From Heterodontus francisci (Eukaryota), in the NCBI RefSeq assembly GCF_036365525.1, contig NC_090379.1, forward strand, positions 12,047,659 through 12,111,658: 64,000 nt of DNA. Reading direction: 5' to 3'. Shown piece by piece: positions 1,029-61,961 of the stretch. Under the pieces are notes generated by a model. The model was given only the letters and a program-made list of their open reading frames with translations. It was not told the origin of the DNA and did no database searches. The position numbers and the translations under genes are program-made. Position 1 is the stretch's first letter. Every line of letters starts with the position of its first letter.

Positions 1029-1890
1029 AGTCGATGGGAATCGGGTGAGGGAGGGGGAGCTCTCCAATGGCTGGAGTCAGGTCTTGCACAGAAGATGCTT
1101 GTGTTTGTTGGAGGTCAAACATCTCTGCCCAGGAGATTCTCAGGGTAGTCTCCTCCGCTCGATCATCTTCAGTTACTTCATCAATGATCTTCCCTCCATC
1201 ATGAGGTCAGAAGTAAGGATGTTTGCTGATGACTTTTTTTATTCATTTGGGGAATGTGGGCATCGCTGGCTGGGCAGCGTTTATTGCCCATCGCTATTGG
1301 CCTTGAGAAGGTGGTGGTGAGCTGCCTTCTTGAACTGCTGCAGTCCTTGGGGTGTAGCTACACCAACAATGCTGTTAGGAAGGGAGTTCCAGGATTTTGA
1401 CTCAGCGACAGTAAAGGAACGGTGATATAGTTCCAAGACAGGATGGTGTGGAGCTTGGAGGGGAACTTCATGGTGAATCTGCTGTCCTTGTCCTTTTAGG
1501 TGGTAGGGGTTGTGGGTTTGGCAGGTGCTGTCAAAGGACTGCACTATGTTCAGTACCATTCGCAACCTCTTAGCTACTGAAGCAGTCCATGCCACGTGCA
1601 GCAAGAACTGAACAACAGTCAAGCTTGGGCTGATAAGTGGAAAGTAACATGACCATTACCAACAACATCCTGGGGGCTACCACTAAACCAGAAACTTAAT
1701 TGGACCAGCCATATAAATACTGTGGCTACATAAGCAGGTCAGAGGCTGAGAATTCTGCAACTTTTAATTTGCCTCCTGCCTCCCCAAAACCTGCCCCTCA
1801 TCTGCAAGGCACAAGTCTTAGATGAGTGCAGCTCCAACAACACTCAAGAATCTCGACATCATCCAGGACAAAGCAGCCTGCTTGATCTGC
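1029..1890 (+). mobile_element. Family 2 LINE RT fragment, interrupted at FADD by an antisense 3' fragment of the same family (about 1233-1540)
   Basis: SQGSLL...FINDLPSIMRSEVRMFADD, then a poly-T and family 2 tail, then RT sequence resumes near 1546. Confidence 0.8.
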
Positions 1891-2232
1891 AAATTTTGAA
1901 ACTGTGCCCTGCAATGCCTAGGTCATTAATACATACCAAGAAAATCAGTGGTCCTAGTACTGACCCTGGGAAACCTCACTGTATATCTTCCTTCAGTCTG
2001 AAAAACAACCTTCACCACTACTCTCCTCTTTCCTGCCACTCAGCCAACTTGGGATTCATGCTGCTGCTATCCCTTTAATTCCATGGGCTTCAACTTTGCT
2101 GGCAAGTCTATTATGTGGCACTGTATCAAACACCTTTTGGAAGTCCATGTACAACGGCTTTACCCTCATCGACCATGTCTGTTTCCTTATCAAAAAAATG
2201 AAAACTGGGCAGCAAGGTTGTGTTTTCTCTGT

Positions 2233-2480
2233 AATAAAAGCAGAATACTGCAGATGCTGGAAATCTGAAATAAAAACAAGAAATGCTGGAACCACTCAGC
2301 AGGTCTGGCAGCATCTGTGGAAAGAGAAGCAGAGTTAACATTTCGGGTCAGTGACCCTTCTTCGGAACTGCTGGTTGGAGTTCCGAAGAAGGGTCACTGA
2401 CCCGAAACGTTAACTCTGCTTATCTTTCCACAGATGCTGCCAGACCTGCTGAGTGGTTCCAGCATTTCTTGTTTTTATTA
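2233..2480. mobile_element. Penelope-derived tail-to-tail terminal repeat (hairpin) with 14-bp TSD
   Basis: 101-nt inverted arms at 2269-2369 and 2379-2479 with 2 mismatches and a 9-nt spacer. TSD TGTGTTTTCTCTGT at 2219-2232 and 2481-2494. The same sequence ends the GIY-YIG element at 62453-63345. Confidence 0.85.
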
Positions 2481-2662
2481 TGTGTTTTCTCTGTGTTTGG
2501 CCTGGCTTTATTTTTATCAGGTTTTTTTTTAATGTCCATATGGCCAGAGTTCTTCCACTGAATGAAACCTAATACAATGTTTAATGAACTATAGAATGAA
2601 ATGTGAAACTCTTTGCCAATCCTTACTGTGCTGTACTGAAAAAAAGTGCAGAGTACGCTAAT

Positions 2663-3370
2663 ACAAAGGCAAAATGCTGCAGGTGCTGGAAATCTGAAAT
2701 ATAAGCAGAAAATTCTGGAAATACGCAGCAGGTCACAGCATCTTTGGAGAGCGAAACAGCATTAATGTTTCAGATCTGTAACCTTTTGTCAGAATTTGAA
2801 ATTTTGCAGATATAATAGTTTTTCAGCAAGTGGGGAGGGGAGGAAAGATTAAAAGGGAAGGTCTGTGATAAGATTGAAAGGTAGGAGTGATTAAATGGCA
2901 AAAGGGGTGATGGTGCGAGGCAAAAAGTTGTGCTAATGCGATTAATAAAACAAAAGCTGAATCCATAGGAGGTGTAAATGGCATCAGCAGAATCATTATT
3001 AGCATCTGCTGCCTGGAGAAAAAAAATAGTAGTTATGATTAGATTAGATTAGATTAGATTAGAGATACAGCACTGAAACTTATGATTGACATAAGGGAAA
3101 AATTTTTACGTGACTTATTATAATCGGGAATGCACAGCCTGAGAGCATGGTGGAGGCAGATTCAATTATGACTTTTGAAAGGGAATTGGATAATTCTCTG
3201 AAGGGAAAAAAAATTTGAAAGACAAGGGAGCGGAATTAGCTAATTTGTTTTGCAGAGAGCCAGCACAGGCTTAATGGGCTAAATTCCTCCTCTGTGCTAT
3301 AACCATTTTTTGATTCTATGGTATGAAGTTGCTGAATTCTGTGTTGAGGTCAGAGGTTATAAAGTGCCAT
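2663..3370 (-). mobile_element. Penelope 3' remnant, interrupted by (ATTAG)n and a CR1 3' fragment (about 3090-3320)
   Basis: Terminal repeat and 3' UTR similar to 62453-62930. 3325-3370 resembles the ORF end at 62890-62930. Confidence 0.65.
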
Positions 3371-4096: not shown

Positions 4097-4475
4097 GGGA
4101 GACGGTCACTGAACTAGTAATCCAGTGGCCTAGACTAATGCCCTGGGGGCATTGGTTCAGATCCCACCATGGCAGTTGGTGAAATTTAAATTCATTAATA
4201 AAAATCTGGCATTGATAGCTAGTCTTTTTTTTATTATTCTTTCATGGGATGTGTCGCTGGCAAGGCCAGCATTTGTTGCCTATCCCTAATTGCCCTTGAC
4301 AACTGAGTGTCTTGCTAGGCCATTTCAGAGGGCAGTTAAGAGTCAACCACATTGCTGTGGGTCTGAAGTCACATGTAGGCCAGACCAGGTAAGGACGGCA
4401 GGTATCCTTCCCTAAAGGACATTAGTGAGCCAGATGGGTTTTTGCAACAATCAATAATAGTTTCATGTCACCAGT
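4097..4475. mobile_element. tRNA-derived SINE with the head on + and the body/tail inverted
   Basis: 4097-4225 matches the head of the SINE at 21423. 4226-4475 is the reverse complement of the rest of that SINE. Confidence 0.75.
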
Positions 4476-8748: not shown

Positions 8749-11700
8749 TTATACAGCACAGAAACAGGCCCTTCGGCCCATCGTGTCTGTGCCGGCCATA
8801 CAGCACCCAACTATTCCAATCCCATATTCTGCACTTGGCCCGTAGCCCTGTATGCTATGGCGTTTCAAGTGCTCATCTAAATACTTCTCAAATGTTCTGA
8901 GGGTTCCTGCCTCCAACTCCTCTTCAGGCAGTGCGTTCCACTTTCCAACCATCCTCTGGGTGAAAAAATGTTTCCTCAAATCCCCCTAAACCTCCTGCCC
9001 CTTACCCTAAATCTATACACCCTGGTTCTTGACTCCTCCACTAAGAACAAAGAAAATTACAGCACAGGAACAGGCCCTTCGGCCCTCCAAGCCTACGCCG
9101 ATCCAAATCCTCTATCTAAACCTGTCGCCTATTTTCTAAGGGTCTGTATCTCTTTACTTCCTGCCCATTCATGTATCTGTCTAGATACATCTTAAAAGAC
9201 GCTATCGTGCCCGCGTCTACCACCTCCGCTGGCAATGCGTTCCATGCACCCACCACCCTCTGCGTAAAGAACTTTCCACGCATAACCCCCCTAAACTTTT
9301 CCCCTTTCACTTTGAACTCGTGTCCCCTTGTAATTGAATCCCCCACTCTGGGGGATTCTAAGGGAAAAAGTTTCCTCCTATCTAACCTATCACTGCCCCT
9401 CATAATCTTGTACACCTCAATCATGTCCCCGTTCAGCCTTCTCTGCTCCAAGGAAAACAACCCCAACCTATCCAGTCTGTCTTCATAGCTGAAATGCTCC
9501 AGCCCAGGCAACATACTGGTGAATCTCCTCTGCACCCTCTCCTGTGCAATCACATCCTTCCTATAGTGTGGTGCCCAGAACTGTACACAGTACTTCAGCT
9601 GTGGCCTAACTAGCATTTTATATATCTCCATCATAACCTCCCTGCTCTTATATTCTGTGCCTTGGCTAATAAAGGCAATTGTCCCATATGCCTTTCTAAC
9701 CACCTTATCGACATGTGCTGCTGCCTTCAGTGATCTATGGACAAGTACACCAAGGTCCTTCTGACTTTCTGTTCTTCCTAGGGTCCTACCATCCATTGTG
9801 TATTCCCTTGCCTTGTTAGTCCTCCCTAAATGCATTACCTCACACTTTTCAGGATTAAATTCCATTTGCCACTGCTCCGCCCATCTAACCAGCCCATCTA
9901 TATCTCCCTGTAATCTAAGGCTTTCCTCCTCATTATTTACAACACCAATTTTTGTGTCAAATGTGAACTTATTGATCATACCTCCTATATTCACATCTAA
10001 GCACCGATCGCTGTGGTACACCACTGGTCACAAGCTTCCAATCGTAAAAACAGCCCTCAACCATTACCCTCTGCCTCCTGCCAATAAGCCAGTTTTGGAT
10101 CCAATTTGCCAAATTTCGCTGGATCACATGGGCTCTTACCTTCTTAACCAATCTCCCATGCGGGACCTTATCAAAAGCCTTACTGAAATCCATGTATACT
10201 ACATCTACTGCTTTACCCTCATCGACACATCAAGTTACCTCCTCGAAAAATTCAATCAAATTAGTTAGATGCGATCTTCCCCTGACAAAGCCATGCTGAC
10301 TATCCCTGATTAATCCCTGCCTCTCCAAGTGGAGATTAATCCTGTCCCTCAGAATGTTTTCCAATATTTTCCCAACTACTGATGTTAGACTCGCCGACCT
10401 GTAATTACCTGGTTTATCCCTACTACCCTTCTTGAATAATTGTACCACATTCGCTGTCTTCCAGTCCTCTGGTACCTCTCCTGTGGCCAGAGAGGATTTG
10501 AAAATTTGTGTCAAAGCCCCTGCTATCTTCTCCCTTGCCTCACATAACAGCCTGGGATACATCTCATCTGGGCCTGAGGATTTATCTACTTTTAAGCCCA
10601 CTAAACCAGCTAATATTTCCTCCCTTTCAATGCTAATATGTTCAAGTATATCACAATCCCCCTCCCTGATCTCTACACCTACATCGTCCTTCTCCATAGT
10701 GAACACCGATGAAAAGTAATCATTTAAAACCTCACCTATGTCCTCCGGCTCCACACAAAGATTGCCACGTTGGTCCCTAATGGGCCCTACTCTTTCCCTG
10801 GTTATCCTCTTACCCTTAATATACTTATAAAATGCCTTGGGATTTTCCTTTACCTTGCCCGCCAGTGTTTTTTCATGCCCCCTCTTCGCTCTCCTAATTA
10901 CTTTTTTTAAGTGCCATCCTACACTTTCTATACTCCTCTAGTACCTCTGCTGTTTTCAGCACTTGGGATCTGCCGTAAGCCTCCTTTTTTTCCCCTGATT
11001 CAAATCTCTATATCCCTTGACATCCAGGGTTCTCTGGGCCTGTTAGTCCTACCCTTCACCTTAATGGGTACATGTTGGCGCTGAACTCTCACTATTTCCT
11101 CTTTGAATGACTCCCTCTGATGAGATGTAGATTTTCCTACAAGTAGCTGCTCCCAGTCCACTTTGGTCAGATCCTGTTTTATCATATTGAAATCGGCCTT
11201 CCCCCAATTCAGTACCTTTATTTCTGGTCCATCTTTGTCCTTTTCCATAACTACCTTAAATCTTATAGCGTTATGGTCACTATCCCCGAAATGTTCCCCC
11301 ACTGACACTTGTACCACTTGACCGGCTTCATTCCCTAGGATTAGGTCCAGTACTGCCCCTTCCCTTGTAGGACTTTCTATATACTGGCTCAAAAAGCTCT
11401 CCTGTATGAATTTTAAGAATTCCGCCCCTTTTAAGCCTTTAGCACTAAGACTATCCCAGTTAATATTGGGGAAGTTGAAATTCCCTACTATTATTACCCT
11501 ATTATTTTTAGACCTCTCTGAGATTTGCCTACATATCTGCTCCTCTATCTCTTCCTGACTGTTTGGAGGCCTGTAGTAGACACCCAGCCAAGTTATTGCC
11601 CCCTTTTTGTTTTTAAGTTCTACCCAAATGGCCTCATTTGAGGAACCTTCTAAGATATCATCCCCCCTTACTGCAGTAATTGACTCGTTGATCAAAAGTG

Positions 11701-11956
11701 CAATGCCACCTCCACTTTTATCTCCGCCCCTGTTGCGCCTGAAGATTCTATACCCTGGAATTTTGAGCTGCCAGTCCTGTCCCTCCCTCAACCATGTCTC
11801 TTTGATAGCAATAATATCATGTTCCCATGTGCTAATCAATGCCCTCAATTCATCTGCCTTACTAGTAAGACTTCTTGCATTGAAATAGATGCAATCCAAC
11901 CTTGCATTTTTCCCTTGTGCCTTACCAGGTCTATATTTGCTCTGCCTTCCAGGCAC
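8749..11956 (-). pseudogene. CR1 ORF2 (APE endonuclease plus reverse transcriptase), frameshifted
   Basis: Motifs YFNARSL, ETWL, GNFNFP, SDHNAI (EN) and QHGFVRGRS, DFSKAFDKVPH, SGVPQ, DTKIG (RT). Confidence 0.92.
9046..9357 (-). mobile_element. 5'-truncated young CR1 (family B) nested in the host CR1 3' end
   Basis: TSD CTAAG at 9041-9045 and 9358-9362. Nearly identical to about 14865-15177. Confidence 0.88.
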
Positions 11957-13931
11957 TTTCTGTTCTATATTACCCCCTACTGTACCTCCACTCTGTATCT
12001 CATCCCCCTGCCATATTAGTTTAAACCCCCTGCAACAGAACTAGCAAATCTCCCAGCAAGGATGCTTGTCCCATTCCGGTTCAGGTGCAACCCGTCCAAC
12101 TTGTACAGGTCCCACCTTTGCCAGAAACAGACCCAGTGATCCAGGAAACTAAAGCCCTCCCTCCTGCACCATCTCCTCAGCCCTGCATTCATCTGCTCTA
12201 TCCTCCTATTTCTAAACTCACTAGCATGTGGCACTGGGAGTAATCCATAGATTACAACCTTAGAGGTCCTGCTTCTTAATCTGCTACCTAGCTCCCTAAA
12301 TTCTTGTCGCAAGACCGCATCCTTTTTTCTACCTATGTCGTTGGTACCAATGTGTACCACGACCTCAGGCTGCTCATCCTCCCCCTTCAGAAGGTCCTGC
12401 AGCCGCTCCGTGACATCCTTGACCCTAGCACCAGGAAGGCAACATACCATCCTGGAGTCACATTTGCGGCCACAGAAACATCTATCTGTATCCCTTATGA
12501 TAGAATCCCCTATCGCTATAGCTCTTCCACTCCTTTTCTCCTCTGCTGTGCAGCAGAGCCATCCTTGGTGCACGGACCTGGCTGTTGCTGCTTTCCCCTG
12601 GGAGGTCATCCCCCCCCAAACAGTATCCAAAGCGGTATATCTGCTTGAGAGGGGGATGGCCACAGGAGACTCCTGTACTACCTGCCTGAGCCTACTACTC
12701 CGCCTGGTGGTTTTTTATTAATTCATGGGATGTGGGCGTCGCTGGCCAGGCCAGCATTTATTGCTCATCCCGAATTGCCCTTGAGGAGGTGGTGGTGAGC
12801 GGCCTTCTTGAACCGCTGCAGTCCATGTGGGGTAGGTACACCCACAGTGCTATTAGGAAGGGAGTTCCAGGATTTTGACCCAATGACAGTGAAGGAACGG
12901 TGATATAGTTCCAAGTCAGGATGGAGCACAGGTCTTCAGTACTATTGCCGGAATATCGTCGGGGCCCATAGCCTTTGCAGTATCCAGTGCCTTCAGTCAT
13001 TTCTTGATATCATGCGGAGTGAATTGAATTGGCTGAAGTCTGGCATCTGTGATGCTGGGGATTTCAGGAGGAGGCCGAGATGGATCATCAGCTCGGCACT
13101 TCTGGCTGAAGATTGTTGCAAATGCTTAAGCCTTATCTTTCGCACTGATGTGCTGGACTCCCCCATCATTGAGGATGGGGATATTTGTGGAGCCACCTCC
13201 TCCAGTTAGTTGTTTAATTGTCCACCACCATTCACGACTGGATGTGGCAGGACTGCTGAGCTTAGATCTGATTCGTTGGTTATGGGACGCTTAGCTTTAT
13301 TGCATGCTGCTTATGCAGTTTGGCACGCAGATAGTCCTGTGTTGTAGCTTCACCAGGTTGACACCTCATTTTGAGGTATGCCTGGTGCTGCTCCTGGCAT
13401 GCTTTCCTGCACTCTTCATTGAACCAGGGTTGGTCTCCTGGCTCGATGGTAATGGTAGAGTGGGGGATATGCCGGGCCATGAGGTACAGATTGTGGTTGA
13501 GTACAATTCTGCTGTTGCTGATGGCCCACAGTGCCTCATGGGTGCCCAGTTTTGCATTGCTAGATCTGTTCGAAAACTATCCCATTTTGCATGGTGGTAG
13601 TGCCACACAACACGAAGGAGGGTATCCTCAATGTGAAGGCGGGACCTCGTCTCCACAATGACTGTGCGGTGGTCACTCCTACCAATACTGTCATGGGCAG
13701 ATGCATCTGCAGCAAGCAGATTGGTGAGGGCGAGGTCAAGTATGTTTTTCCCTCTTGTTGGTTCCCTCACCACCTGCCACATACCCAGTCTAGCAGATAT
13801 GTCCTTTAGGACTCGGCTAGCTCGGTCGTTAGTGGTGCTACCGAGCCACTCTTGGTGATGGACATTGAAGTCCCCCACCCAGAGTACGTTCTGTGCCCTT
13901 GTCACCCTCAGTGCTTCCTCCAGGTGCTGTT

Positions 13932-14765
13932 CAAAGAACAGTACAGCACAGGAACAGGCCATTCGGCCCTCCAAGCCTGCGCCGATCATGATGCCTGTCT
14001 GAACGAAAACCTTCTGCACTTCCGGGGTCCGTATCCCTCTATTCCCATCCTATTCATGTATTTGTCAAGATGCCTCTTAAACGTCGCTATCATACCTGCT
14101 TCCACCACCTCCCCCGGCAGCACGTTCCAGGCACTCACCACCCTCTCTAAAAAAAAAAAAAACTTGCCTCGCACATCCCCTCTAAACTTTGCCCTTCGCA
14201 CCTTAAACCTATGTCCCCTAGTAACTGACTCTTCCACCCTGGGAAAAAGCTTCTGACCATCCACTCTGTCCATGCCACTCATAAATTTGTAAACCTCTAT
14301 CATGTCGCCCCTCCACCTCCGTCGTTCCAGTGAAAACAATCCAACCTCTCCTCATAGCTAATAGCCTCCAGACCAGGCAAAATCTTGGTAAACCTCTTCT
14401 GTACCCTCTCCAAAGCCTCCACGTCCTTCTGATAGTGTGGTGACCAGAATTGTACTCAATATTCTAAGTGTGGCCTAACTGAGGTTCTGTTCAGCTGCAG
14501 CATGACTTGCCAATTTTTATACTCTATGCCCCGACCGATGAAGGCAAGCATGCCATATGCCTTCTTGACTACCTTATCCATCTGTGTTGCCACTTTCAGT
14601 GATCTGTGGACCTGTAAGCCCAGATCTCTCTGCCTGTCAATACTCCTAAGGGTTCTGCCATTTACTGTATACTTCCCACCTGTATTAGACCTTCCAAAAT
14701 GCATTACCTCACATTTGTCCGGATTAAACTCCATTTGCCATTTCTCTGCCCAAGTCTCCGACCGA
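13932..14765 (-). mobile_element. 5'-truncated CR1 LINE nested in the family 2 LINE
   Basis: MEFNPDKCEVMHFG...RPHLEY and FSLERRRWRGDMIEVYK, with a CR1 tail. Confidence 0.9.
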
Positions 14766-14861
14766 TCTCAACATGGAGGAGTACTGACTCATCAGCTGAG
14801 GGAGGGCGGTAGGTGGTAATCAGCAGTAGGTTTCCTTGCCCATGTTTGACCTGATGCCATG

Positions 14862-16690
14862 AACAAAGAACAAAGATAATTACAGCACAGGAACAGGCCC
14901 TTCGGCCCTCCAAGCCTGCGCCGATCCAGATCCTCTCTCTAAACATGTCGCCTATTTTCTAAGGTTCTGTATCTCTTTTCTTCCTGCCCATTCATGTATC
15001 TGTCTAGATACATCTTAAAAGACTCCATCGTGCCCGCATCTACCACCTCCGCTGGCAATGCGTTCCAGGTGCCCACCACCCTCTGCGTAAAGAACTTTCC
15101 ACGCATATCCCCCCTAAACTTTTCCCCTTTCACTTTGAACTCGTGTCCTCTAGTAATTGAAACCCCCACTCTGGGAAAAAGCCTCTTGCTATCCACCCTG
15201 TCTATACCTCTCATGATTTTGTACACCTCAATCAGGTCCCCCCTCAACCTCCGTCTTTCTAATGAAAATAATCCTAATCTGCTCAACCTCTCTTCATAGC
15301 TAGCGCCCTCCATACCAGGCAACATCCTGGTGAACCTCCTCTGCACCCTCTCCAAAGCATCCACATCCTTTTGATAATGTGGCGACCAGAACTGTACGCA
15401 GTATTCCAAATGTGGCCGAACCAAAGTCCTATACAACTGTAACATGACCTGCCAACTCTTGTACTCAATGCCCCGTCCGATGAAGGAAAGCATGCCGTAT
15501 GCCTTCTTGACCACTCTATTTACCTGCGTTGCCACCTTCAGGGAACAGTGGACCTGAACACCCAAATCTCTCTGGACATCAATTTTCCCCAGGACTTTTC
15601 CATTTACTGTATAGTTCACTCTTGAATTGGATCTTCCAAAATGCATCACCTCGCATTTGCCCTGATTGAACTCCATCTGCTATTTCTCTGCCCAACTCTC
15701 CAATCTATCTATATTCTGCTGTATTCTCTGACAGTCCCCTTCACTATCTGCTACTCCACCAATCTTAGTGTCGTCTGCAAATTTGCTAATCAGTCCACCT
15801 ATACTTTCCTCCAAATCATTAATGTATATCACAAACAACAGTGGTCCCAGCACGGATCCCTGTGGAACACCACTGGTCACACGTCTCCATTTTGAGAAAC
15901 TCCCTTCTACTGCTACTCTCTGTCTCCTGTTGCCCAGCCAGTTCTTTATCCATCTAGCTAGTACACCTTGGACCCCAAGCGCCTTCACTTTCTCCATCAG
16001 CCTGCCATGGGGAACCTTATCAAACGCCTTACTGAAGTCCATGTATATGACATCGACAGCCCTTCCCTCATCAATCAACTTTGTCACTTCCTCAAAGAAT
16101 TCTATTAAGTTGGTAAGACATGACCTTCCCTGCACAAAACCATGTTGCCTATCACTGATGAGCCCATTTTCTTCCAAATGGGAATAGATCCTATCCCTCA
16201 GTATCTTCTCCAGCAGCTTCCCTACCACTGACGTCAGGCTCACCGGTCTATAATTACCTGGATTATCCCTGCTACCCTTCTTAAACAAGGGGACAACATT
16301 AGCAATTCTCCAGTCCTCCGGGACCTCACCCGTGTTTAAGGATGCTGCAAAGATATCTGTTAAGGCCCCAGCTATTTCCTCTCTCGCTTCCCTCAGTAAC
16401 CTGGGATAGAACCCATCCGGACCTGGGGACTTGTTCACCTTAATGCCCTTTAGAATACCCAACACTTCCTCCCTCCTTATGCCGACTTGACCTAGAGTAA
16501 TCAAACATCTGTTCCTAACCTCAACATCCGTCATGTCCCTCTCCTCGGTGAATACCGATGCAAAGTACTCGTTTAGAATCTCACCCATTTTCTCTGAGTC
16601 CAAGCATAACATTCCTCCTTTGTCCTTTAGTGGGCCAATCCTTTCTCTAGTTACCCTCTTTCTCCTTATATATGAATAAAAGGCTTTGGG
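14862..16690 (-). mobile_element. Young 5'-truncated CR1 LINE (family B) with an almost intact RT
   Basis: ORFs 16612-15680 and 15676-14939 are separated only by one stop codon. Contains GVPQGSVLGPLLF and FADDTK. Confidence 0.95.
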
Positions 16691-17781
16691 ACTTCATGGG
16701 GTCCATAGTTGATGTTGAGGACTCGCAGGGCAACTCCCTCCCTACTGTATACCACTGTGCCACCACCTCTGCTGGATCTGTCCTGCCGGTGGGACAGGAC
16801 ATATCCGGGGATGGTGATGGCAGAGTCTGGGATATTGTCTGTCAGGTATGATTCCGTGAGTATGACTATATCAGGCTGTTGTTTGAGTAGTCTGTGGGAC
16901 AGCTCTCCCAACTTTGGCACAAGCCCCCAGATGTTAGTAAGGAGGACTTTGCAAGGTTGACAGGGCTGGGTTTGCCGTTGTTGTTTCCGGTGCCTAGGTC
17001 GATGCCGGATGGTCCATCCGGTTTCATTCCTTTTTATTGACTTCGTAACGGTTAGATACAACTGAGTGGCTTGCTAGACCATTTCAGAAGGCAGCATGTA
17101 AGAGTCAACCACATTGCTGTGGGTCTGGAGTCACATGTAGACCAGACCAGGTAAGGACAGCAGATTTCCTTCCCTGAAGGACATTAGTGAACCAGATGGG
17201 TTTTTACAACAATCGACAATGGTTTCATGGCCATCATTAGACTAGCTTTTTTTAATTCCAGATTTATTAATTGAATTCAAATTCCACCTTCTGGGATTTG
17301 AACCCATGTCCCCTGAGCAATACCCTGGGTCTCTGGGTTACTAGTCCAGTGAGAATACTACTACGCCACCACCTCCCACATCCCTTTTCTGCCTGTGCTG
17401 CCATTACCTGCGTTGTGACCACCTCTTTAAATGTGCCATCCACGACGTTCTCAGCATCACAGATGCTCCACAGTGAATCCACCCGCAGCTCTAGCTCCGT
17501 AATGCGTGTAGTCAGTAGCTGCAGATGGATGCCTTTCTTGCACACATGATCATCAGGGACATTGGAAGCATCCCTGATTTCCCACATAGTGCAGGAAGAG
17601 CATACCACAGGGCTGAGCTCCCCTGCCATGACTTACCTTTAAATTAATTTAGTTACTCCCTTTAAAAAATACTAATTACACTAGGGGTCTTGTCTGCTCC
17701 AAACACTACCCAGTACAGTCTAAAGTCCTTAATAAATTACTCTAATTTAAGTAGTACTACTCACCTTATCAGTTTTTTAAT

Positions 17782-17983
17782 AGTTTTTAGGAGTGTCTGA
17801 AAAGAGGAGAGGTAGAGAGGCAGGGAGGTTTAGAAAGGGAATTCCAGAGCTTATGGTCTAGGCAGCTGAAGGCATGGCTGCCAGTGGTCGAGAGATTAAA
17901 ATTAGGTATGTGCAAGAGGCCAGGATTGGAAGAGCGCAGAGTTCTCAGAGGGTTGATTTGGCAACACACTCTTTAAGACCAAG
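17782..17983 (-). mobile_element. L2-like fragment, right half of the element split by the nest
   Basis: RTLRSS...AFSCLDHKLWNSL, continuing from 8640-8733. Confidence 0.7.
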
Positions 17984-19186: not shown

Positions 19187-21422
19187 GTAAATATTATCTT
19201 CTGTCATTCTTAATCATTATTGTCTTGTTTTGGATGAGTGACACGGGTGTGTTGCTAATTTAAGCATTCACTCCATTGTCCAATTCCCTCGCCTCTGCGT
19301 CTGTTATTGAGGGGTTCTGAGACGCTGCAACAAGAGGCAAACACCTTGCGTAGATGACCGGAGCCCAGAGTCAACATGGTGTGAGCTCCCACAGTGAGCA
19401 GTAAGATAGCATAATATGTACATAAAATGGACAAAGCCCAGCATTTCTTTCAAGTAGCGTGTACGCTGATCTTGATGTGTTTAAAATTGCCATTTTTAAA
19501 AACTCCTTTGGAGGCAGAGAAAATTTGATGCATTTACTTTGAGACACATATGCTTTCATATCACATAGAATTTATAGCACAGCTATTTGGTCCAACTAGT
19601 CCATGCCATTCTATATGCTCCACACAAATCTCCTCCCAGCCTACTTCATCTCACCAATCAACACATCCTTCTATACCTTTCTCCCCTCATGCTTATGTTG
19701 TTTGAACGCATGAATTCAGGTTCCAGTGACTCTGCCATAAGTTGGCTCCCAGCTATTAATTCCCTTTTCTGAAGGTTAAACTGAGTCTCATGAGTTGGGT
19801 GCTGTGTTATAGTGTGTGAATTTAACAGTCCAACTGGAAATTGAAAGGAACAATTTAAAAGTATGTTGAGTACAAAATAAACAAGAGTTTTGTTATGGCT
19901 CAGTATGTACATGTGGTGGAAGCAACCTCCAAGTTTGCCTTTTTGTTAACCTGTTTAAGTATCCCAGCAAAATGAACAGCTCCAATCCCAGCAACTGCTC
20001 CTTTATAGAATCATACAATGCAAAATGAGGCCATTCGGCCATTGTACCTGTGCTAGCTCTTTGAAGGAGTTATCCAATTAGGCCCAATTCCCTGCTCTTT
20101 CCTCATAGCTCAGCAGTTTTTTTCTTTTAAAATTTTATTCCAATTCCATTTTGAAAGTTACTATTGAATCAGCTTCCACTACACTTTTAAGGAGTGCATT
20201 CCAGATCATCATAACTCACTAGTAGCGTTCTGGTAAATCTTTGCACCCTTTACAAGTTGATATTATAGCTGATTGTTCTTTTCAGTTCTTTTCCCTGTCT
20301 GTTTTTATCCCCTGCGCTCCCCTAAAATCACTGACCGTAGCTAAGGTGCAGGCCCATGGTGCCTTGGGCACCCGCTGTTATATTGCCCAAGTGGCTATCT
20401 CCACGTCTGTGTCTAAACCGAGAGACGTTTTTGTGGGTGGGAGGTTGACCTTTGTAGTCCATCTTGTTCTTGATTTCCTTCAATGCCAGCATGCTTTCCA
20501 GAAGGGGGTCACTGGATAGTGCTTGGGAGGAGTGACTGTAATAGAAAATGGACACTGCTGCACCCATGCTATTGGCTCTAGGTAATTCACCTGGCCACAG
20601 TGCTGCCGAGATCACAATTCAGCACAGGGATCTGATCTGGGCCCTCCTGGAATGTGTGACACAGTTCCACGCTAGGCAATGAGCTACCAACTTAGACTGT
20701 TGAAAAGCTCTAGTTAACGAGTCTTAACCGACAACATATTGCCACTCTTTCCATACAGGGAGGCTGTGTGTATTAAAAGTTTAAATATCTTTTGTTGCTA
20801 TCATTGCACGATTCTTTAAGTGAGGAGTGCTGAACTTCAATGCTTGTGGCTGGTTAACTTTGCTTTCCTCCCATCTGACATTTTTCAAAGCTGCTTCCCG
20901 CCACTGTAAACCAGGCGCTGCATATCCTTGAAATTAAAAAGAAAGCGGAAACATGCTGGAAACAGGCCCAGCAGCATTCGAAGGTAGTGGGGTTTGGGAA
21001 TGGCATAACGTTTCAAGCCTGATGAATGGAAACATGAACCTGTAAAGGCAATCAGATTAAAGTCTAATGCACTGACAGCAGGCTAGGCATGCTGTAGGAG
21101 AAGCAAGGAGCCAAGCCAGCTGCAGGTGGATTCTTTTCCTATAACTCTTAGCAGTGGGCAGGAAAGGAAAAGAATTATGGGAAGCCTGGGAAAAACACAT
21201 ATTTTGCTGTTAACATGGACAACCATGCAGGATTCAATGTGAGAACTTTAATGTTTTTGTGAAAAGTAGAATGGATGTTGCCAGATCAATTCCTTTTATA
21301 ATCGTTCACACACTTGCAGAAATAGTGTTGCAAGAGACTGGACCTTGCATTTCGCAGCTGTGCATTAACTCATATATAAATGTAATGTATTTGAAACAGA
21401 AACAGATGAATATGATGAGCAT

Positions 21423-21834
21423 GGGAGATGGTGGCGTAGTGGTAATGTCACTGAACTAGTAATCCAGAGGCCTGGGGTAATGCCCTGGGGACACGGGTTC
21501 AAATCCCACCACGGCAGCTGGTGGAATTTAAATTCAATGAATTAATTTTTTAAAATCTGGAATTGAAAGCTAATCTCAGTAATGGTGCCATGAAACTATC
21601 AACAATTGTCGTAAAAACCCATCTGGTTCACTAGTGTCCTTTAGGGAAGGAAATCTGCCGTCCTTACCTGGCCTGGCCTACATGTGACTTCAGACCCACA
21701 GCAATGTAGTTGATTCTTAACTACCTTCTGAAATGGCCGAGCAAGCCACTCAGTTGTCAAGGGTAATTCGGGATGGGCAACAAATACTGGCCTTGCCAGC
21801 AATACCCACATCCCATGAAGGAATAAAAAAAAAA
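21423..21834 (+). mobile_element. Full-length tRNA-derived SINE sharing its head/body and tail with the family 2 LINE
   Basis: A box TGGCGTAGTGG at 21432-21442, B box GGTTCAAATCC at 21496-21506, LINE-type tail and poly-A. Confidence 0.9.
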
Positions 21835-22610: not shown

Positions 22611-23364
22611 AAAATGTATTTAATAACCCAGCTGCCCAGTGCAATCAAAGGCTTGTACAATAGAATATATTGCCTACATAACAACAGTCATTGCACTTGA
22701 AAATAATCCATTGGATGTGAAGCATTTTGAAACAAGGTAAAATACTATCTGAATACAAGCGTTTCTTTCTTGGCTCCACCTCTCTACCACCTTCCTCAAA
22801 CCCTTAAGTGCCTCTGTGTTGTCAGACTGCTTGTCCAACATGGATGAGTAACAATTTCCTCCAAACCTGTTGCCTTCAGCTCTGATCACAAACTCTGCTG
22901 TCTTGCCAGTGAATCTAACCCCCGTCCTGTCCACTGCCACAAGCTCAGCTAGACCATTCGCAGCCTTGACAACCTTTTGGGCTGTGAACCAAGTTTGAGA
23001 CCACATATCCTCTCTGCCACAAATACCACTTACTTTAACCTCCGCAACATTGGCCATCTCCATCCAGCCATTGGTTAAATCATTATTTCTGCCTTTGTCA
23101 CTTTCAGAGTATAAACTACTCCAGTATTCTCCCACCCTCCAAAACTTCTGACTTCCTCATTTATCTCACTGCTGTTTGTGGGATCTTGCTGTGTGCAAAT
23201 AATCCCTACATCACAACAGTGACTGCACTAAACAGTATTTAAATGTAAATTGCATTGGGACATTTTGAGGTACTACATAGATGAAAATTCTTTATTTTCT
23301 TTCATTCATGTTTATCTGTATAATGTATAATGGTTAACTACTCTTCAAAAGTAATTCATGGGCT

Positions 23365-23705
23365 TTTTTTTCATTCATTCATTCGTGGGTTGTGGGCATC
23401 GCTGGCAAAGGAGGCATTTATTGCCCATCCCCATTTGCCCTTGAGAAGGTGGTGGTGAGCTGCCTTCTTGAACTGCTGCAGTCACTATGGTGTAGGAGCA
23501 CCCACAAGTACTGTTAGGGAGGGACTTACAGGCTTTTGACTCAGCAACAGTGAAAGAACGACGATATAGTTCCAAGTCAGGATGGTGTGACTTGGAGCGG
23601 AACTTGCAAGTGGTGATGTTCCGATGCGTTTGCTGTCCTTATCCTTCTAGCTATTTGAGGTTGCGAATTTGGAAGGTGCTAATGAAGGAGCCTTGGCGAG
23701 TTGTT
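23365..23705 (-). mobile_element. Family 2 LINE 3' fragment
   Basis: Matches the 3' end at 47200-47490. Confidence 0.8.
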
Positions 23706-24294
23706 TGAAGTGCTTTGGAGAGTGTTCAGTGCACAAAAGTGCCGCATAAGTGAAAATTCTTTCTTTGTTTTCTGCTGCTATGTCCTTCCAGCCGCTATTG
23801 CATATTTTCCGATTATTTGTCTTAATTGTCCCTGTACGTAAATCTCTGAGGGCCCAGCTATCCGAAAGAATCACTGCTTTAGTCACTGCCTTCCCATTTC
23901 AATACAGTCCAAGTAAACCCATCATGCTGCCAAGTTTTTAACAGTATTAATGATAAACTCAGTATTCTTTCAGATCTCTTGATGCATTGCCTGCTAAGTG
24001 GCCTTTACTGTCCTCCTCCTAAAATATCATTGTGAGCCTGAATCCTGTCCTGAATGTTGGGGCTTACTGACAGCTGTTTCCTCTAACAATTCTGCAGCTA
24101 AAATTCTCTGCAGTCTTTGAAAACAGAACTCTAACAAATTAAGGGAGAGAGAAATCTGATTCTTGGACAAGGTAGATAAAGAATGAAAATGGAAGGGAAA
24201 TAAAGAATTGAAGGGTTATGAAACAAAAAATAAGTATCTAAATCCAATTTCCATGCCCAACACAGACACACAAGCGCATACTCTCACTCTCACG

Positions 24295-24562
24295 CAAATA
24301 CATGGGAACACCACCACCTGCAAGTTCCCCTCCAAGTCACAAGCCATCCTGACTTGGAACTATATCGCCGTTCCTTCACTGTCGCTGGGCCAAAATCCTG
24401 GAGCTGCCTTCCTAACAGCACTGTGGGCATACCTACCCCAAATGGACTGCAGCGGTTCAAGAAGGCAGCTCACCACCACCTTCTCAAGGGCAATTAGGGA
24501 TGGGCAATAAATGCTGGCCTGGCCAGCATCGCCCACATCCCATGAATGAATAAAAAAAAAAG
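24295..24562 (+). mobile_element. Family 2 LINE 3' fragment
   Basis: Matches the family 3' end and ends in poly-A. Confidence 0.85.
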
Positions 24563-44790: not shown

Positions 44791-44949
44791 TAGACATTTG
44801 TCTCCTTGCTGTTGTGGGACCTTGCAGAGTTCACATTGGTTGCTGCATTTGCCTACAAAATGACAGTGACTACACTTCAAAAGTAATTTATTAGCTACTT
44901 TAGGATACAAGTGGGCTTATTTAGCATATTGGTACAAATGCACTATAAA

Positions 44950-47490
44950 TGAAGAATGTGGGAGAGCATGCCAGGAGCAGCACCAGGTATACCTAAAAAT
45001 GAGATGTCAGCCTGGTGAAGCTACAACACAGGACTACATGGATGCCAAACAGCGGAAGCAGCATGCGGTAGACAGAGCTAAGCGATCCCACAACCGTCGG
45101 ATCAGATCAAAGATCTGCAGTGCTGCCATATCCAGCCTTGAATAGTGTGGACAATTAAACAACTAACGGGAAGAGGAGGCTACAAATATCCCATTCTCAA
45201 TGATGGGGGAGCCCAGCACATCAGTGCAAAAGGAAAGACTGAAGCATTTTGGACCATCTTCAGCCAGAAATACCAAATGGATGATCCATCTTGGCCTCCT
45301 CCTGGGGTCCCCAGTATCACAGATGCCAGACTTCAGCCAATCCAGTTCACTCCATGTGATATCAAGAAACGGCTGAAGACACTGGATACTGCAAGGCTAT
45401 GGCCCCTGATAGCATTCTGTCAACAGTACTGAAGACTTATGCTCCATAACTAGCCACGCCTCTAGCCAAGCTGAACCAGTACAGCTACAACACAGGCATC
45501 TACCCGACAATGTGGAAAATTGCCCAGGTATGTCCTATCCACGAAAACCAGGGAAAATCCAATCCGGCCATTTACCATCCCATCAGTCTACTCTCGATCA
45601 TCAGCAAACTGATGGAAGGTGTCGCTGACAGTGCTATCAAGCACCACTTAAACAGCAATAACCTGCTCACCGATACTCCTTTTTTAAAAATTCATTCATG
45701 GGATGTGGGTGACGCTGGCCAGGCCAGCATTTATTGCCCATCCCTCATTGCCCTTGAGAAGGTGGTGGTGAGCTGCCTTCTTGAACCGCTGCAGTCCATG
45801 TGGGGTAGGTACACCCACAGTGCTGTTAGGAAGGGAGTTCCAGGATTTTGACCCAGCGACAGTGAAGTCAGGATGGTGTGTGACTTGGAGGGGAACCTGC
45901 AAGTGGTGGTGTTCCCATGCATTTGCTGCCCTTGTCCTTCTAGTTGGTAGAGGTCGTGGGTTTGGAAGGTGCTGTCTAAGGAGCCTTGGTGCGTTGCTGC
46001 AGTGCATCTTGTAGATGGTGCACACTGCTGCCACTGTGCGTCGGTGGTGGAGGGAGTGAATGTTTGTAGATGGGGTGCCAATCAATCGGGCTGCTTTAAC
46101 CTGCAAAGTGTCAAGCTTCTTGAGTGTTGGAGTTGCACCCATCCAAGAAAGTGGAGAGTATTCCATCACGCTCCTGACTTGTGCCTTGTAGATGGTGGAC
46201 AGGCTTTGGGGAGTCAGGAGGTGAGTCACTTGCCGCAGAATTCCTAGCTAAAGTCATGAGGTTGACCTGATTACAGCCTTGGGCCAGACATGGACAAAGG
46301 AGCTGAACTCAAGGTGAGATGAGAGTGTTTACCCTAGATATCAAGGCAGTATTTGACTGAGTATGGCAACAAGGGGCCCTAACAAAACTGGAGTCAGTGG
46401 GAATCAGTTGAAAACTCTTCACTGGTTGGAGTCGTACCTTGCACAAAGGAAGATGGTTGTGGTTGTTGGAGATCAATCATCTCAACTCCTGCAATGATGT
46501 TCTGGAGCTTCTCAGGGTAGTGTCTCAGGCCCAACCATCTTCAGCTGCTTCATTAATGACCTTTCCTCCATCATAAGTTCAGAAGTGGTGTTGTTCACTG
46601 ATGATTGCACAGTGTTCAGTACCATTCACAATTCCTCAGATGTTGAAGCAATCTGTGCTAATATACAGCAAGACATGGGCAACTTCAGGCTTGGGCTGAT
46701 AAGTGGCAAGTAAAATTCGTACCACACAAGTGTCAGGCAATGGCAATCACCAATCAGAGAGAAGGAAACCATCTTCTCTTGACATTCAATGGCATTACCA
46801 TCACTGAATCCCACACTAACAACATCCTGGGGGTTACCATTGACCAGAAACTGAACTGGAGCAGCCATATAAATACCGTGGCTACAAGAACAGGTCAAAG
46901 GCTAGGAATCCTGCGGTGAGTAACTCACCTCCTGACTCCCTAAAGCTTGTCCACCTTTTACAAGGCACAAGTCAGGAGTGTGATGGAATACTCTCCACTT
47001 GCCTGGATGGGTGCAGCTCCAACAACACTCAAGAATCTTGACACTTTCCCGGATAAAGCAGCCCGCTTGATTGGCACCCCATCTACAAACATTCACTCCC
47101 TCCACCACCGACGCACAGTGGCAGCAGTGTGTACCATCTACATGATGCACTGCAGCAATGCACCAAGGCTCCTTAGACAGCACCTTCCAAACCCACGACC
47201 TCTACCACCTAGAAGGACAAGGGCAGCAGATGCATGAGAGCACCACCACCTGCAAGTTCCCCTCCAAGCCACACACCATCCTGACTTGGAACTATATTGT
47301 TGTTCCTTCATTGTCGCTGGGTCAAAATCCTAGAACTCCCTTCCTAACACACTGTGGGTGTACCTACCCCACATGGACTGCAGTGGTTCAAGAAGGCAGC
47401 TCACCACCACCTTCTCAAGGGCAACTAGGGATGGGCAATAAATGCAGGCCTAGCCAGCGATGTCCATATCCCAGAAACAAATAAAAAAAA
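44950..47490 (+). mobile_element. 5'-truncated family 2 LINE with an antisense family 2 insert (about 45678-46247)
   Basis: MWKIAQVCPIH...PISLLSIISKLMEG, FTDD and YKAQVRSVMEYSPLAW, with tail and poly-A. Confidence 0.88.
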
Positions 47491-48875
47491 ATTAGGGTAG
47501 ATGAAGGGAATTATGAGAGAAGCTTTTCTGGAGGAATTTAGAACAAGGGGGCACAATCTTAAAATTAGAATGAAATCATTTAGGAGTGAAATCAGGAAGC
47601 ATTTTTTTACAGACAAATCTGGTGGAAAATAGTGGATATCCGGAACTCATTTCTTCCAAAATGCTGTTGATGCGGGGGGTCATTTGAAAATGTCAAGACT
47701 GAGATTGATTTTTTAATTATTCAGTAACAAGGGGAGAACAACACATTGTTCTACTGAACTTCAACTCCACAAAATGTTACAATAGCCTGGAGCACTGCAA
47801 GTTTCCGATCTTGTTGTCTATTGTAGAGCAAAAGCCTCTTCCAATCGTAGTGTCAGTCACCCAGGGTTGTTTGTTGGACTTCCTAGGAAACTTTTAGCAT
47901 CTCTAGCTCACTTCCTTACCTGCGAAGAGAAAGAATTTTTTTTAAATTCAGTTGTTGAATTGGAAAGGTTGTTGTTTTGCAACCAAAAGACATCCAGCAC
48001 TGAGATAGTTAAATAATCAACTTGAACATACGGAGGAAGTAAACACCTTCTGATCAGTGTTCATGCAGATAATTTCTGTGAAACTCTGGCAGCTCCCAGC
48101 TCACCGAGATTTTAGTTTCCTGTATGTGAAAGATGATGTATTCATCAACGAACATTTAAATATCAACCAAAAATACTTTCTTCAGTCCCATTGTGGAGTG
48201 AGTCATAATTCTGCACTTGAAATACAGAATAAATCTGGAAGTGAAGTATTTTACTGGGAAATAAGCCAACATGTGCTTCCAAATCTCTGTGTCCTCGCCC
48301 GCCCCCGCCATTTGTAGCCTCATAACAGCCCTCTGAGATCATTGCTCCTCCAATTCTGGCCTTTTGTGCATACCAGAATTTCTACCTCATCCAATTCCAT
48401 ATCCTACTCCATCCAATCACATCATAGTCAGTCTGATTGAGCAGCCTTGGCGAGCACTTTAGTATCAGCAGAAGCCAAATAGGGTGGCTTCAGTATTGCG
48501 AGTTTTGAGCTGAAGGTTATTTTGGCTCATACAGGACTTGAAATCAGACAGGTAGTTGAGCGCTGTGACAGTCATGGCACAAAGAGTGCAGATGAAAGCT
48601 AGGTGTCAGCATGTAAGTGGACAGTGACTCCTTGTTTGCGTATGATGTTGTCAAGGGACAACAAAAACATAGTAAAACATCCCAAGGTGCTTCACAGGGG
48701 CCTAATCAAATGAAATTTGACACCAAGCCACATGAGATATTACGGCAGATGCTTGGTCACAGAGGTAGGTATTAAGGAGCATCTTAAAGGAGGGGAGAAG
48801 TTTAGGGAGGAAATTTGCATAGCTTAGGGCCCAGGCAGGTGAAAGTACGGCCACGAATAGTGGAGCAATTAAATT

Positions 48876-56051: not shown

Positions 56052-56308
56052 AAATCTAATGGTGACCGTGAAACCATTGTCAATTGTTGTAAAAACCCAT
56101 CTGGTTCACTAATGTCCTTTAGGGAAGGAAATCTGCCATCCTTACTTGGTCTGGCCTACATGTGATTCCAGACCCACAGCAACGTGCTTGACTCTTAACT
56201 GTTTCTGAAATGGCCTAACAAGTCACTCAGTCATCAAGGGCAATTAGGGATGGGCAACAAATGCAGGCCTAGCGTGCCCATATCCCACAATAACAAATAA
56301 AAAAAAAT
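56052..56308 (+). mobile_element. 5'-truncated copy of the tRNA-derived SINE
   Basis: Matches 21580-21834. A further degraded copy lies at about 59920-60135. Confidence 0.8.
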
Positions 56309-59516: not shown

Positions 59517-60574
59517 GTAAGTGACTTCTTTGTGGTTGTGTTTCTAAACTGATGTTTTATCTTGTAAATTAAACCCTAAGTTGTTCTGCTTAGTTGTATT
59601 TGTATAATCATAGATTAAAAATGGTTTTTGTATCGATGGTTTAAGTATTAATGTTATGTCCATCCAGGTTTCTTTATGTCATTAGAGCCAACATTCCTGT
59701 TGATGTTTCCATCATTAATTTTTATGTGTGCTTTTATAATGGAAAGATCATTATGGCTGCAACGCCACTATTGGTGGAAAAATGGGATTACAGTGTGACA
59801 AGTTTACATTGGCAATCACCATTATAAATGTGCACACAAGAATTTTTAATGGAAATATAGCGTAAGGACAGAATCTATCAATCTGAATTATACCTACATG
59901 CCTAATTCAACGATCTCCACCCTGGGAATTTGAATTCTGTTTTAAAATCTAGAAATAAAAACTTGTATCAAAAAAAGTGAAGCTGTCGGATTGTTGTAAA
60001 AACCCAACTAGTTCACACATGTCTTTTCGGAAAGGAAACCAGCTGTCCTTACCCTTTCTAGCCTATATGTGATTTCAGACCCACACTTAGAGTTGACTAT
60101 TAACTGCCTTTTGGAGTGGCAAGCAAGCCATTCATATATCAAACTGCTAGGATTCAAGAATAAATCGGAGTCACTGATTTAATTATAAATAAGGCTGTAT
60201 GAATTCTGATAATTAGTCATCGTTTGATAGTCTCATTGTCATAGGGCACTGTTGCAAAATTTTTCTTATAAATAAGACAATTGTGGGAGATTCATGAGTT
60301 AACACCAGATATCCTTCAGTTCTAGAGGTTTGTTTTGGGTGAATGGAAATAGCGCAAGACCTTTTGGTTAAGAAATGTTTCCCTTTGAATCTTTGATCTG
60401 CTGGAACTGTACAATCCACATTCTTACAACCCTTTGTGTGAAGAATTAAGTTTCTTGGCTGCACTTTGAACTAGCTTAGTTTGGATTCTAGGATCATTTC
60501 ACCTTGTTCTGGCTTCCCTACTAGAGGAAAAAGTAATTTCCTCTCTAATCTGTTGCAATATTGATGGAGTAACA

Positions 60575-61620: not shown

Positions 61621-61961
61621 AAAAAATTCACTGGTCACTGATTTTGAATTGGTGAGCAAATGTCCAGTCCAATAAGACCATAAGAAATAAGAGCACTGTA
61701 GTAACTCAACAAGTCTTCTTTGATAGCACTTTCCAAACCCATGATCTCTACTGCCTAGAAGGACCAGCACATCAGATGTATGGGTCAAAATCCTGGAACT
61801 CCACACAACATCACCACCACCCCCACCCCCCGCACCAGAACAGAAATATGGGTATACCTACGGCACAAGGACTGCAACGGTTCAAGAAGGCAGCTCACCA
61901 CCACCTTCTCGATGGAAATTAGGAATGAGCAATAAATACAACACCCAGATCCCATGAACAG

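Follow-up and report, generated by a model that had tools for sequence, protein, structure and literature searches.

A Zenon LINE of Heterodontus francisci with a tRNA-derived, Pol III-Type Head and a Coding Strand Poor in T-Runs

The DNA analyzed in this report is a 64,000-nt stretch (the window, to which all positions refer) of NC_090379.1 from Heterodontus francisci (GCF_036365525.1). On its minus strand, at 17378-12711, lies a copy of a Zenon long interspersed nuclear element (LINE) that begins with a tRNA-derived head bearing the A and B boxes of an RNA polymerase III (Pol III) promoter. The family is abundant and approximately 3.3 kb in length, and consists of a tRNA-Thr-like head with A/B boxes, a body of 150 nt, one open reading frame (ORF) of 974 codons for endonuclease (EN) and reverse transcriptase (RT), an AATAAA motif, and a poly-A tail. 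What has gone unremarked is the Pol III-type head together with a coding strand purged of T-runs; the sequence family itself has already been catalogued.

The window copy is a dead and decayed Zenon LINE, broken up by two nested CR1 fragments and without most of its RT (Table 1). A natural copy, L039 (the ruler), served as the yardstick for this and all other copies. Ruler positions 3-694 were located at 17377-16687, 692-786 at 14862-14768, 783-1799 at 13934-12924, and 3081-3297 at 12924-12711. A preliminary description, made from the letters of the window, had taken 12711-17378 to be one continuous LINE, but nested CR1 occupies 16690-14863 and 14767-13935, and the RT has lost about 1.28 kb at 12924. 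The A box (17368-17358) and the B box (17304-17294) were found where that description had placed them. It was also correct in reporting an EN frame approximately 300 nt behind the 5′ end with no ORF1, and a poly-A end at 12711, which is a short A-run. The EN frame (Pfam Exo_endo_phos) opens past a TAG at 17076-17074. The copy resides in the ORF1 of a host CR1, and its two ends had been thought to abut consecutive host codons. The seven empty sites of this CR1 instead read ...EKG-W-V-TTRR..., with W-V in six and L-V in one; since they carry these extra residues, 4-5 bp of the target was lost at insertion, with no duplication. Entry of the head and the LINE as a single unit is still supported despite this loss. 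The Zenon copy was inserted into the host CR1, and the two CR1 fragments were then inserted into the Zenon copy.

The head was found to be the family's own 5′ end. A probe for the body and the start of the EN returned 3349 candidates, and the best 40 scored all match nearly the full probe at 94-100%. In the other 39 scored loci, which were fetched, the head is present from its first 26 bases in 35 and the tail lies downstream in 34, with a typical head-to-tail distance of 3.29 kb. Similarity between copies ends sharply some 10 nt ahead of the A box. Because this probe favored head-bearing copies, an internal EN probe was added. Among the 29 of its 39 other matches that were examined, 19 extend as far as the first 12 bases, 4 stop within the head or body, and 6 break at ruler 346-495, with flanks unrelated to one another. 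No alternative 5′ UTR (untranslated region) or ORF1 was found among the copies recovered by either probe; full-length copies with such a 5′ end were one of the two findings that, according to the preliminary description, would have refuted its proposal. A one-off template-switch chimera is ruled out by the 40 of 40 matches that span the junction from the head and body to the EN, and by the 35 of 39 head-bearing copies; the earlier suggestion of a family thus holds. Target-site duplications were not detected, the longest word shared by the two flanks in 39 copies being no longer than in mismatched pairs. In presumed RNA-derived contigs the element is covered in four runs and the joint of its short derivatives in three, although the start, strand, and polymerase are not readable from contigs. 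Four of the 29 copies (L314, L319, L328, and L329) have 5′ truncations that fall within one A-rich stretch of 10 nt in the leader, at ruler 346-356, with unrelated flanks, and this cluster may mark a preferred truncation or RNA cleavage point.

Two head-bearing subfamilies were assigned by identity to the ruler, with intermediate copies left out. The young group contains 33 copies (96.6% identical to their own column majority) and the old group 15 copies (89.7%). The cores of both boxes are retained in both subfamilies, and the A and B boxes are also present in the published consensus rows of five other species. Using default settings, ARAGORN called a tRNA in 14 of 79 fetched 5′ regions, 12 of these as Thr(AGT), and in 46 of 79 under relaxed settings; it made no tRNA call in the window, where the copy is short of 8 nt behind the B box. 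When aligned with the tRNA-Thr genes of the genome, young heads score above all 300 shuffles and old heads only marginally so. The isotype comparison was limited to Thr(TGT) and Lys(TTT) genes, and a Ser origin is also possible. From least to most, the subfamilies have diverged by 2.3% in the body, 4.7% in the ORF, 9% in the leader, and 20% in the head. Searches of Rfam returned nothing meaningful for the 5′ region of the window copy, and for eight copies only weak matches to the T-arm of tmRNA, with no tRNA, ribozyme, or internal ribosome entry site (IRES) family above threshold. RNAalifold of the heads (19 inputs, one of which, L042, was a wrong stretch) gave a weak structure that was not used. 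In old copies and in the dogfish rows, the extra hairpin of the head (17349-17310) looks as if the anticodon arm had been duplicated (CTAATG-N versus CTAGTAA), as judged by eye. The stem letters of the extra hairpin vary between the subfamilies, with pairing seemingly maintained, again by eye. Upstream of non-shark relatives, no A/B box motif was found in the 39 loci examined of 79. A blastn comparison of the shark 5′ region with all 79 loci gave nothing below E = 0.08, and many of these contigs may stop short of the 5′ end. Relaxed ARAGORN matches at these loci are scattered over both strands and were disregarded. The head may first have come from a tRNA or from a lost short interspersed nuclear element (SINE).

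The ORF has been kept under purifying selection in both subfamilies. The commonest codons of the 33 young copies form one 974-codon frame with no stop, and Pfam identifies Exo_endo_phos(_2) and RVT_1, both in one ORF, in natural copies. The old majority sequence has four internal stops, which were read as probable CpG decay. From the EN to the stop codon, the clear non-CpG differences between young and old are distributed 70:11:13 over third, first, and second codon positions, and the codon differences comprise 66 synonymous versus 22 nonsynonymous changes. The ORF evolved under selection with the head attached.

The preliminary description had proposed a check for T4+ terminators, and the coding strand was found to have no shared TTTT. 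Among 23 near-complete copies, no TTTT occurs in more than one copy, whereas 14 AAAA sites are common to most. Relative to base composition, the young subfamily has 8 TTT versus 27.8 expected and 0 TTTT versus 5.7 expected (shuffle P = 0.006 for zero TTTT); the corresponding values for the old subfamily are 7 versus 26.6 and 0 versus 5.4. All of the metagenome relatives counted (74 of 79) contain TTTT, the smallest TTT ratio among them being 0.57. Where T at a synonymous T/C third position would create a run of three, it is chosen in 4 of 39 cases, compared with 162 of 351 where it would stand isolated; the odds ratio is 0.15 (P = 0.006, stratified by the next base). The same test gives 0.15 (P = 0.02) for the old subfamily and 0.21 (P = 0.009) for unaltered natural ORFs, compared with 0.87 for the CR1 of the window and 0.45-3.2 for 60 metagenome relatives. 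In genomic ORFs of at least 250 codons, the observed/expected ratio of TTT is 0.29 for 96 family ORFs versus 1.41 for 23 CR1 ORFs. The content of Phe is 1.8% in the family versus 2.4-6.8% in 32 relatives. Oligo-T is the Pol III terminator and has been used to rule Pol III in or out for a retroposon (PMC4494074). The selective lack of T-runs fits Pol III transcription of the whole element. If this is true, the ORF has been shaped against terminators at the synonymous level and perhaps also at the amino-acid level. The DNA of the closest non-shark relatives (P0001, P0003, and P0004) contains T4 and T5 runs.

The leader contains no in-frame ATG, and the first one is codon 284. There are 9-11 ATGs within the first 370 nt. 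In the window copy, TTG at 17061-17059 is in the EN frame, and an ATG at 17027-17025 is out of frame. The preliminary description had noted that the frame, as listed, starts at TTG; this TTG was confirmed to be in frame, and it is now one candidate among others. The TTG and the NIWG of the EN are separated by a number of nucleotides divisible by three in 63 of 68 copies of one set and in 33 of 36 of another, slightly overlapping set, with lengths of 126, 123, 129, and 117 nt and group lengths of 126 and 123 nt; the leader therefore behaves as if it were translated in the EN frame. Conservation across 110 copies extends through the body to ruler 335 and then collapses. By eye, the TTG is in the EN frame in the published rows of three of five species, and a GCT four codons later is in frame in four of five. 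The young subfamily and six of the seven published rows have an ATG in the +1 frame, 30 nt behind the body; as a universal start it is ruled out by ATA in old-subfamily copies. No conserved slippery site for a -1 shift was seen by eye. The proteins of P0001, P0003, and P0004 also begin, as called, at or inside the first EN motif, and a missing upstream AUG may be a wider property of this lineage.

The loop (CU-AGC-AA) of the hairpin predicted to close the body could pair with the in-frame GCT located 12 nt downstream. No covariation was found for the helices of the body or for this loop-GCT pairing, the named helices being conserved without compensatory change. The intergenic region (IGR) IRES of dicistroviruses is defined by three pseudoknots with tRNA-mRNA mimicry before a non-AUG codon, and there, too, a non-AUG start follows a conserved RNA region of similar length (PMC3894237). 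It is offered here as a lead: the shark body has no Rfam match and no compensatory changes, and the likeness is one of an anticodon-like loop and of geometry.

Canonical CR1 elements end in a microsatellite-like tail; the tails of this family are instead short A-runs, which are often eroded. Both subfamilies also have AATAAA at ruler 120 and 343. A T-run before the A-tail was considered as a built-in terminator and rejected, since at least three extra T are found in 16 of 65 LINE-type tails versus 52 of 167 control A-tracts. About a third of the A-tracts in the fetched loci, tails and controls alike, have the form of a T-run followed by an A-run, which suggests a common mutational conversion.

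Shorter elements of about 0.4 kb, in which the head and body are followed at once by the terminal ~80 nt of the LINE, are also abundant. A search returned 5203 candidates, and the best 40 scored all bear the head, body, and tail; most 0.4-kb copies have AACAAA in place of the AATAAA of the LINE. Older derivatives break at many points, several of them inside the leader or EN (ruler 315-340, 433, 512, and 546, joined to 3019-3221), as recovered with probes that favored copies reaching the end of the body. An old body-only relic at 59925-60152 (73%) that runs on into a LINE-like leader served to find these older derivatives. The simplest order would be that the LINE came first and that the SINE-like derivatives arose from it by internal deletion. 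Of the properties by which tRNA-derived SINEs (SINE2) are recognized, the tRNA-derived A/B-box head and the lack of internal oligo-T on the transcribed strand are found in this family. Another, to be short and noncoding, applies to the ~0.4-kb derivatives and not to the 3.3-kb LINE with its selected ORF.

The host is a long, probably near-complete CR1 (9040-12710 and 17379-17800) with an esterase-like ORF1 and a decayed ORF2. Elsewhere in the window, a long 5′-truncated Zenon copy lies at 44948-47495 (ruler 1298-3303, 84-88%), into which an inverted second 3′ piece is inserted at 45680-46248. Additional 3′ fragments, some of them rearranged, are found at 1-1885, 23363-23696, 24294-24561, and 61689-61937.

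Table 1. Features of the Zenon copy, its host site, and related elements in the window
Feature	Position	Strand	Evidence or remark
Head derived from a tRNA, Thr(AGT)-like, additional hairpin at the variable-arm position; 5′ end of the element	17285..17378	-	similarity between copies begins here
A box TGGCGTAGTAG	17358..17368	-	column conservation in two subfamilies
B box GGTTCAAATCC	17294..17304	-	column conservation in two subfamilies
Body (conserved part of the 5′ region)	17060..17214	-	2.3% divergence between subfamilies versus 4.7% for the ORF
Predicted hairpin closing the body, 7-nt loop CTAGCAA	17087-17062	-	structure prediction only
Start of the single ORF: basic leader of ~45 codons, then N-terminus of the apurinic/apyrimidinic (APE)-type EN	16687..17073	-	NIWG at 16935
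Nested 5′-truncated CR1 (RT and 3′ UTR), foreign to the element	14863..16690	-	
95-nt EN piece of the element between both nested CR1 fragments	14768..14862	-	ruler 692-786, 93%
Second nested CR1 3′ fragment, foreign to the element	13935..14767	-	
Remaining EN, linker, and start of RT, decayed	12924..13934	-	ruler 783-1799, then 3081
ORF 3′ end, short 3′ UTR with AATAAA (12762-12757), A-tail	12711..12924	-	
Host CR1 ORF1, portion upstream of the insertion	17379..17632	-	
Host CR1 ORF1, portion downstream of the insertion	12016..12710	-	
SINE-like internal-deletion derivative: head plus body fused to the LINE's final ~80 nt	21422..21834	+	
5′-truncated derivative of the same SINE-like kind	56055..56306	+	
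SINE-like derivative, head inverted at 4106-4225	4224..4467	-	

Whether the family was already catalogued had been left open by the preliminary description; it has been published as elasmobranch Zenon. ORF1-less Zenon elements with poly-A tails were described from five elasmobranchs and were not deposited in the repeat databases (Stuart et al. 2026, PMC13343379). CarCar_Zenon-1, RhiTyp_Zenon-1, and SquAca_Zenon-1 of that report have APE and RT, no ORF1, and poly-A, and the five -1 rows measure 3.24-3.31 kb. The family described here likewise has APE and RT in one ORF, no ORF1, and a poly-A tail. In all seven elasmobranch rows, from sharks and a ray, the first 400 nt match the head, body, and leader of the family by eye. 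The three hagfish and coelacanth rows start differently over their first 400 nt, with no such head (by eye). From the 5′ 400 nt and the length of the published rows, the family is identified as elasmobranch Zenon (CR1 group), and the head-bearing form appears to be conserved in sharks and a ray. The missing ORF1, which had been presented as an anomaly, is the normal state of Zenon elements; canonical CR1 differs in having an esterase-type ORF1 (PMC13343379). That paper is silent on the head, as "tRNA" occurs 0 times in its main text and supplement and "polymerase III" 0 times in its main text. The title and abstract openings searched, a set outside Repbase, Dfam, and subscription journals, contain no report of an autonomous LINE transcribed by Pol III or of this head.

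Some Ingi/Vingi elements have 5′ ends derived from small RNAs. RTE-1_DAn and related elements in Repbase are LINEs with a tRNA-like sequence that matches many SINE2 families (Kojima 2018, PMC5786205). They differ from the shark elements in belonging to the RTE clade, and the pertinent part of that source, compared here by description only, treats the match as a nuisance, without a position or a polymerase. The Persaeus SIDE and the lepidopteran Zenon likewise provide short elements made from the 5′ and 3′ ends of a Zenon element by internal deletion (PMC6740152). Persaeus is described there as having no tRNA homology and no Pol III promoter, whereas the shark parent LINE supplies one. Since the parent carries a Pol III-type head, its deletion products resemble ordinary tRNA SINEs. 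The bipartite SINEs Bov-tA, WALLSI2, and SINE2-1_EC also combine a tRNA head with a 5′ part and a 3′ part of a LINE (Kojima 2018), but in these the head stands on a deleted, noncoding LINE and in the shark on a coding parent. The UCON3 rows in the supplement of PMC7245038 are unlike the body of the family, and two words of the body occur 0 times there. Other fish SINEs, as far as they are displayed in PMC7245038 and PMC5499810, do not match the body. The portions consulted of 10.1101/443036, PMC3747384, and PMC7140322 add nothing on the head.

The best reading of these sequences, and in our judgment a probable one, is that the 3.3-kb Zenon RNA is made by Pol III from the A and B boxes of the head and is translated, we infer, from a non-AUG codon. 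Pol III would start approximately 10 nt upstream of the A box. Since no TTTT lies in its path, it would read through the whole element and would stop at the first T-run in the flanking DNA. The RNA would be uncapped and may be polyadenylated through AATAAA. With an uncapped RNA, 9-11 upstream ATGs, and no in-frame AUG before the EN, cap-independent non-AUG initiation is proposed; it would fall just behind the conserved body, at the TTG or a nearby codon. This choice of a start for the EN-RT protein is the weakest step of the account. Recognition of the RNA 3′ end during target-primed reverse transcription is established for LINEs, and by this process the EN-RT would copy its own RNA and, via the shared 3′ end, that of the deletion derivatives. 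A broader picture is put forward more tentatively, as a possibility that we would not yet call probable: an autonomous Pol III-mRNA retrotransposon active throughout shark and ray history, with an uncapped and T-run-purged RNA, a non-AUG start via a ribosome-binding RNA domain, possible anticodon-loop mimicry, and SINEs formed by deletion.

Several results weigh against transcription by Pol III and a TTG start. The statistical case for the complete absence of TTTT is weaker under stricter nulls, with P = 0.085 for a codon permutation that preserves the codon usage of the family and P = 0.11 for a first-order Markov model. No significant depletion was seen for interrupted terminators (T3-V-T2 types). 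The two subfamilies have a common ancestry and do not count as independent samples, and the 60-74 relatives are distant (the best being ~36% identical in protein) and mutually related. The B box of the old subfamily is off consensus at two positions. The TTG is out of the EN frame in the whale-shark and dogfish consensus sequences, as judged by eye. The dogfish row fits neither the TTG nor the GCT, and a TAA follows its TTG; this may reflect an error of the consensus, which is A-rich here, or may speak against a fixed start. None of the fetched copies has an unbroken ORF, which makes present activity of the family no more than a possibility.

Other results on this side are those expected if the RNA is made by RNA polymerase II (Pol II), from an internal promoter or by read-through from the host, with a head that was captured once and kept as an RNA structure for 5′-end processing, stability, or ribosome recruitment, and with T-poorness due to other constraints. 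We regard this explanation as unlikely, although it deserves serious weight. It accounts for the poly-A tail and for the AATAAA near the 3′ end, which is conserved at five of its six positions in 33 of 33 young copies, and for the faster drift of the head than of the body and ORF. Synonymous sites also show a mild avoidance of C-runs and A-runs (odds ratios of 0.52, P = 0.04, and 0.62, P = 0.09, respectively), and self-cleaving RNA structures set the 5′ ends of LINEs in other clades (PMC5786205). However, the avoidance of T-runs far exceeds that of A- and C-runs and is absent from the CR1 of this genome and from the relatives, and both boxes have been retained in the two subfamilies as well as in five further species. 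The AATAAA motifs at ruler 120 and 343 would be awkward for a Pol II RNA. The copies also start ~10 nt before the A box, and the 5′ end of a mature tRNA would lie a few bases downstream of this point, which also speaks against this explanation.

Less probable still is a division of labor, in which the Pol III RNA is the one that is copied and the protein comes in trans from a rarer Pol II read-through RNA, perhaps from the out-of-frame ATG via a -1 shift. Uncapped Pol III RNAs are translated poorly, many derivatives have been mobilized in trans, and the +1-frame ATG behind the body is found in the young subfamily and in most of the published rows. This ATG is, however, replaced by ATA in the old subfamily, no conserved slippery site was seen by eye, and a protein that copies the very RNA encoding it would most easily account for the purifying selection on the ORF. 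That a SINE lately gave its head and body to a headless LINE, or that such chimeras recur with the long form as a passenger, is hardly tenable and largely refuted: a SINE-like family that shares the head, body, and tail is indeed abundant, but its breakpoints are many and several lie inside the LINE-specific leader and EN, one identical junction is shared by two subfamilies, sharks, and a ray, and the ORF has been under selection with the head attached.

If the polymerase is Pol II, these results still usefully annotate a family already catalogued. SINEs and LINEs are conventionally divided by polymerase and coding capacity, and the Zenon head, if the Pol III reading is true, would cross that division. 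Zenon would then be a natural vertebrate example of a long, protein-coding Pol III transcript, and its leader of 350 nt would allow a direct test of whether a LINE ORF2 is translated cap-independently from a non-AUG codon. Deletion within such an element would also provide a one-step route from a LINE to a SINE.

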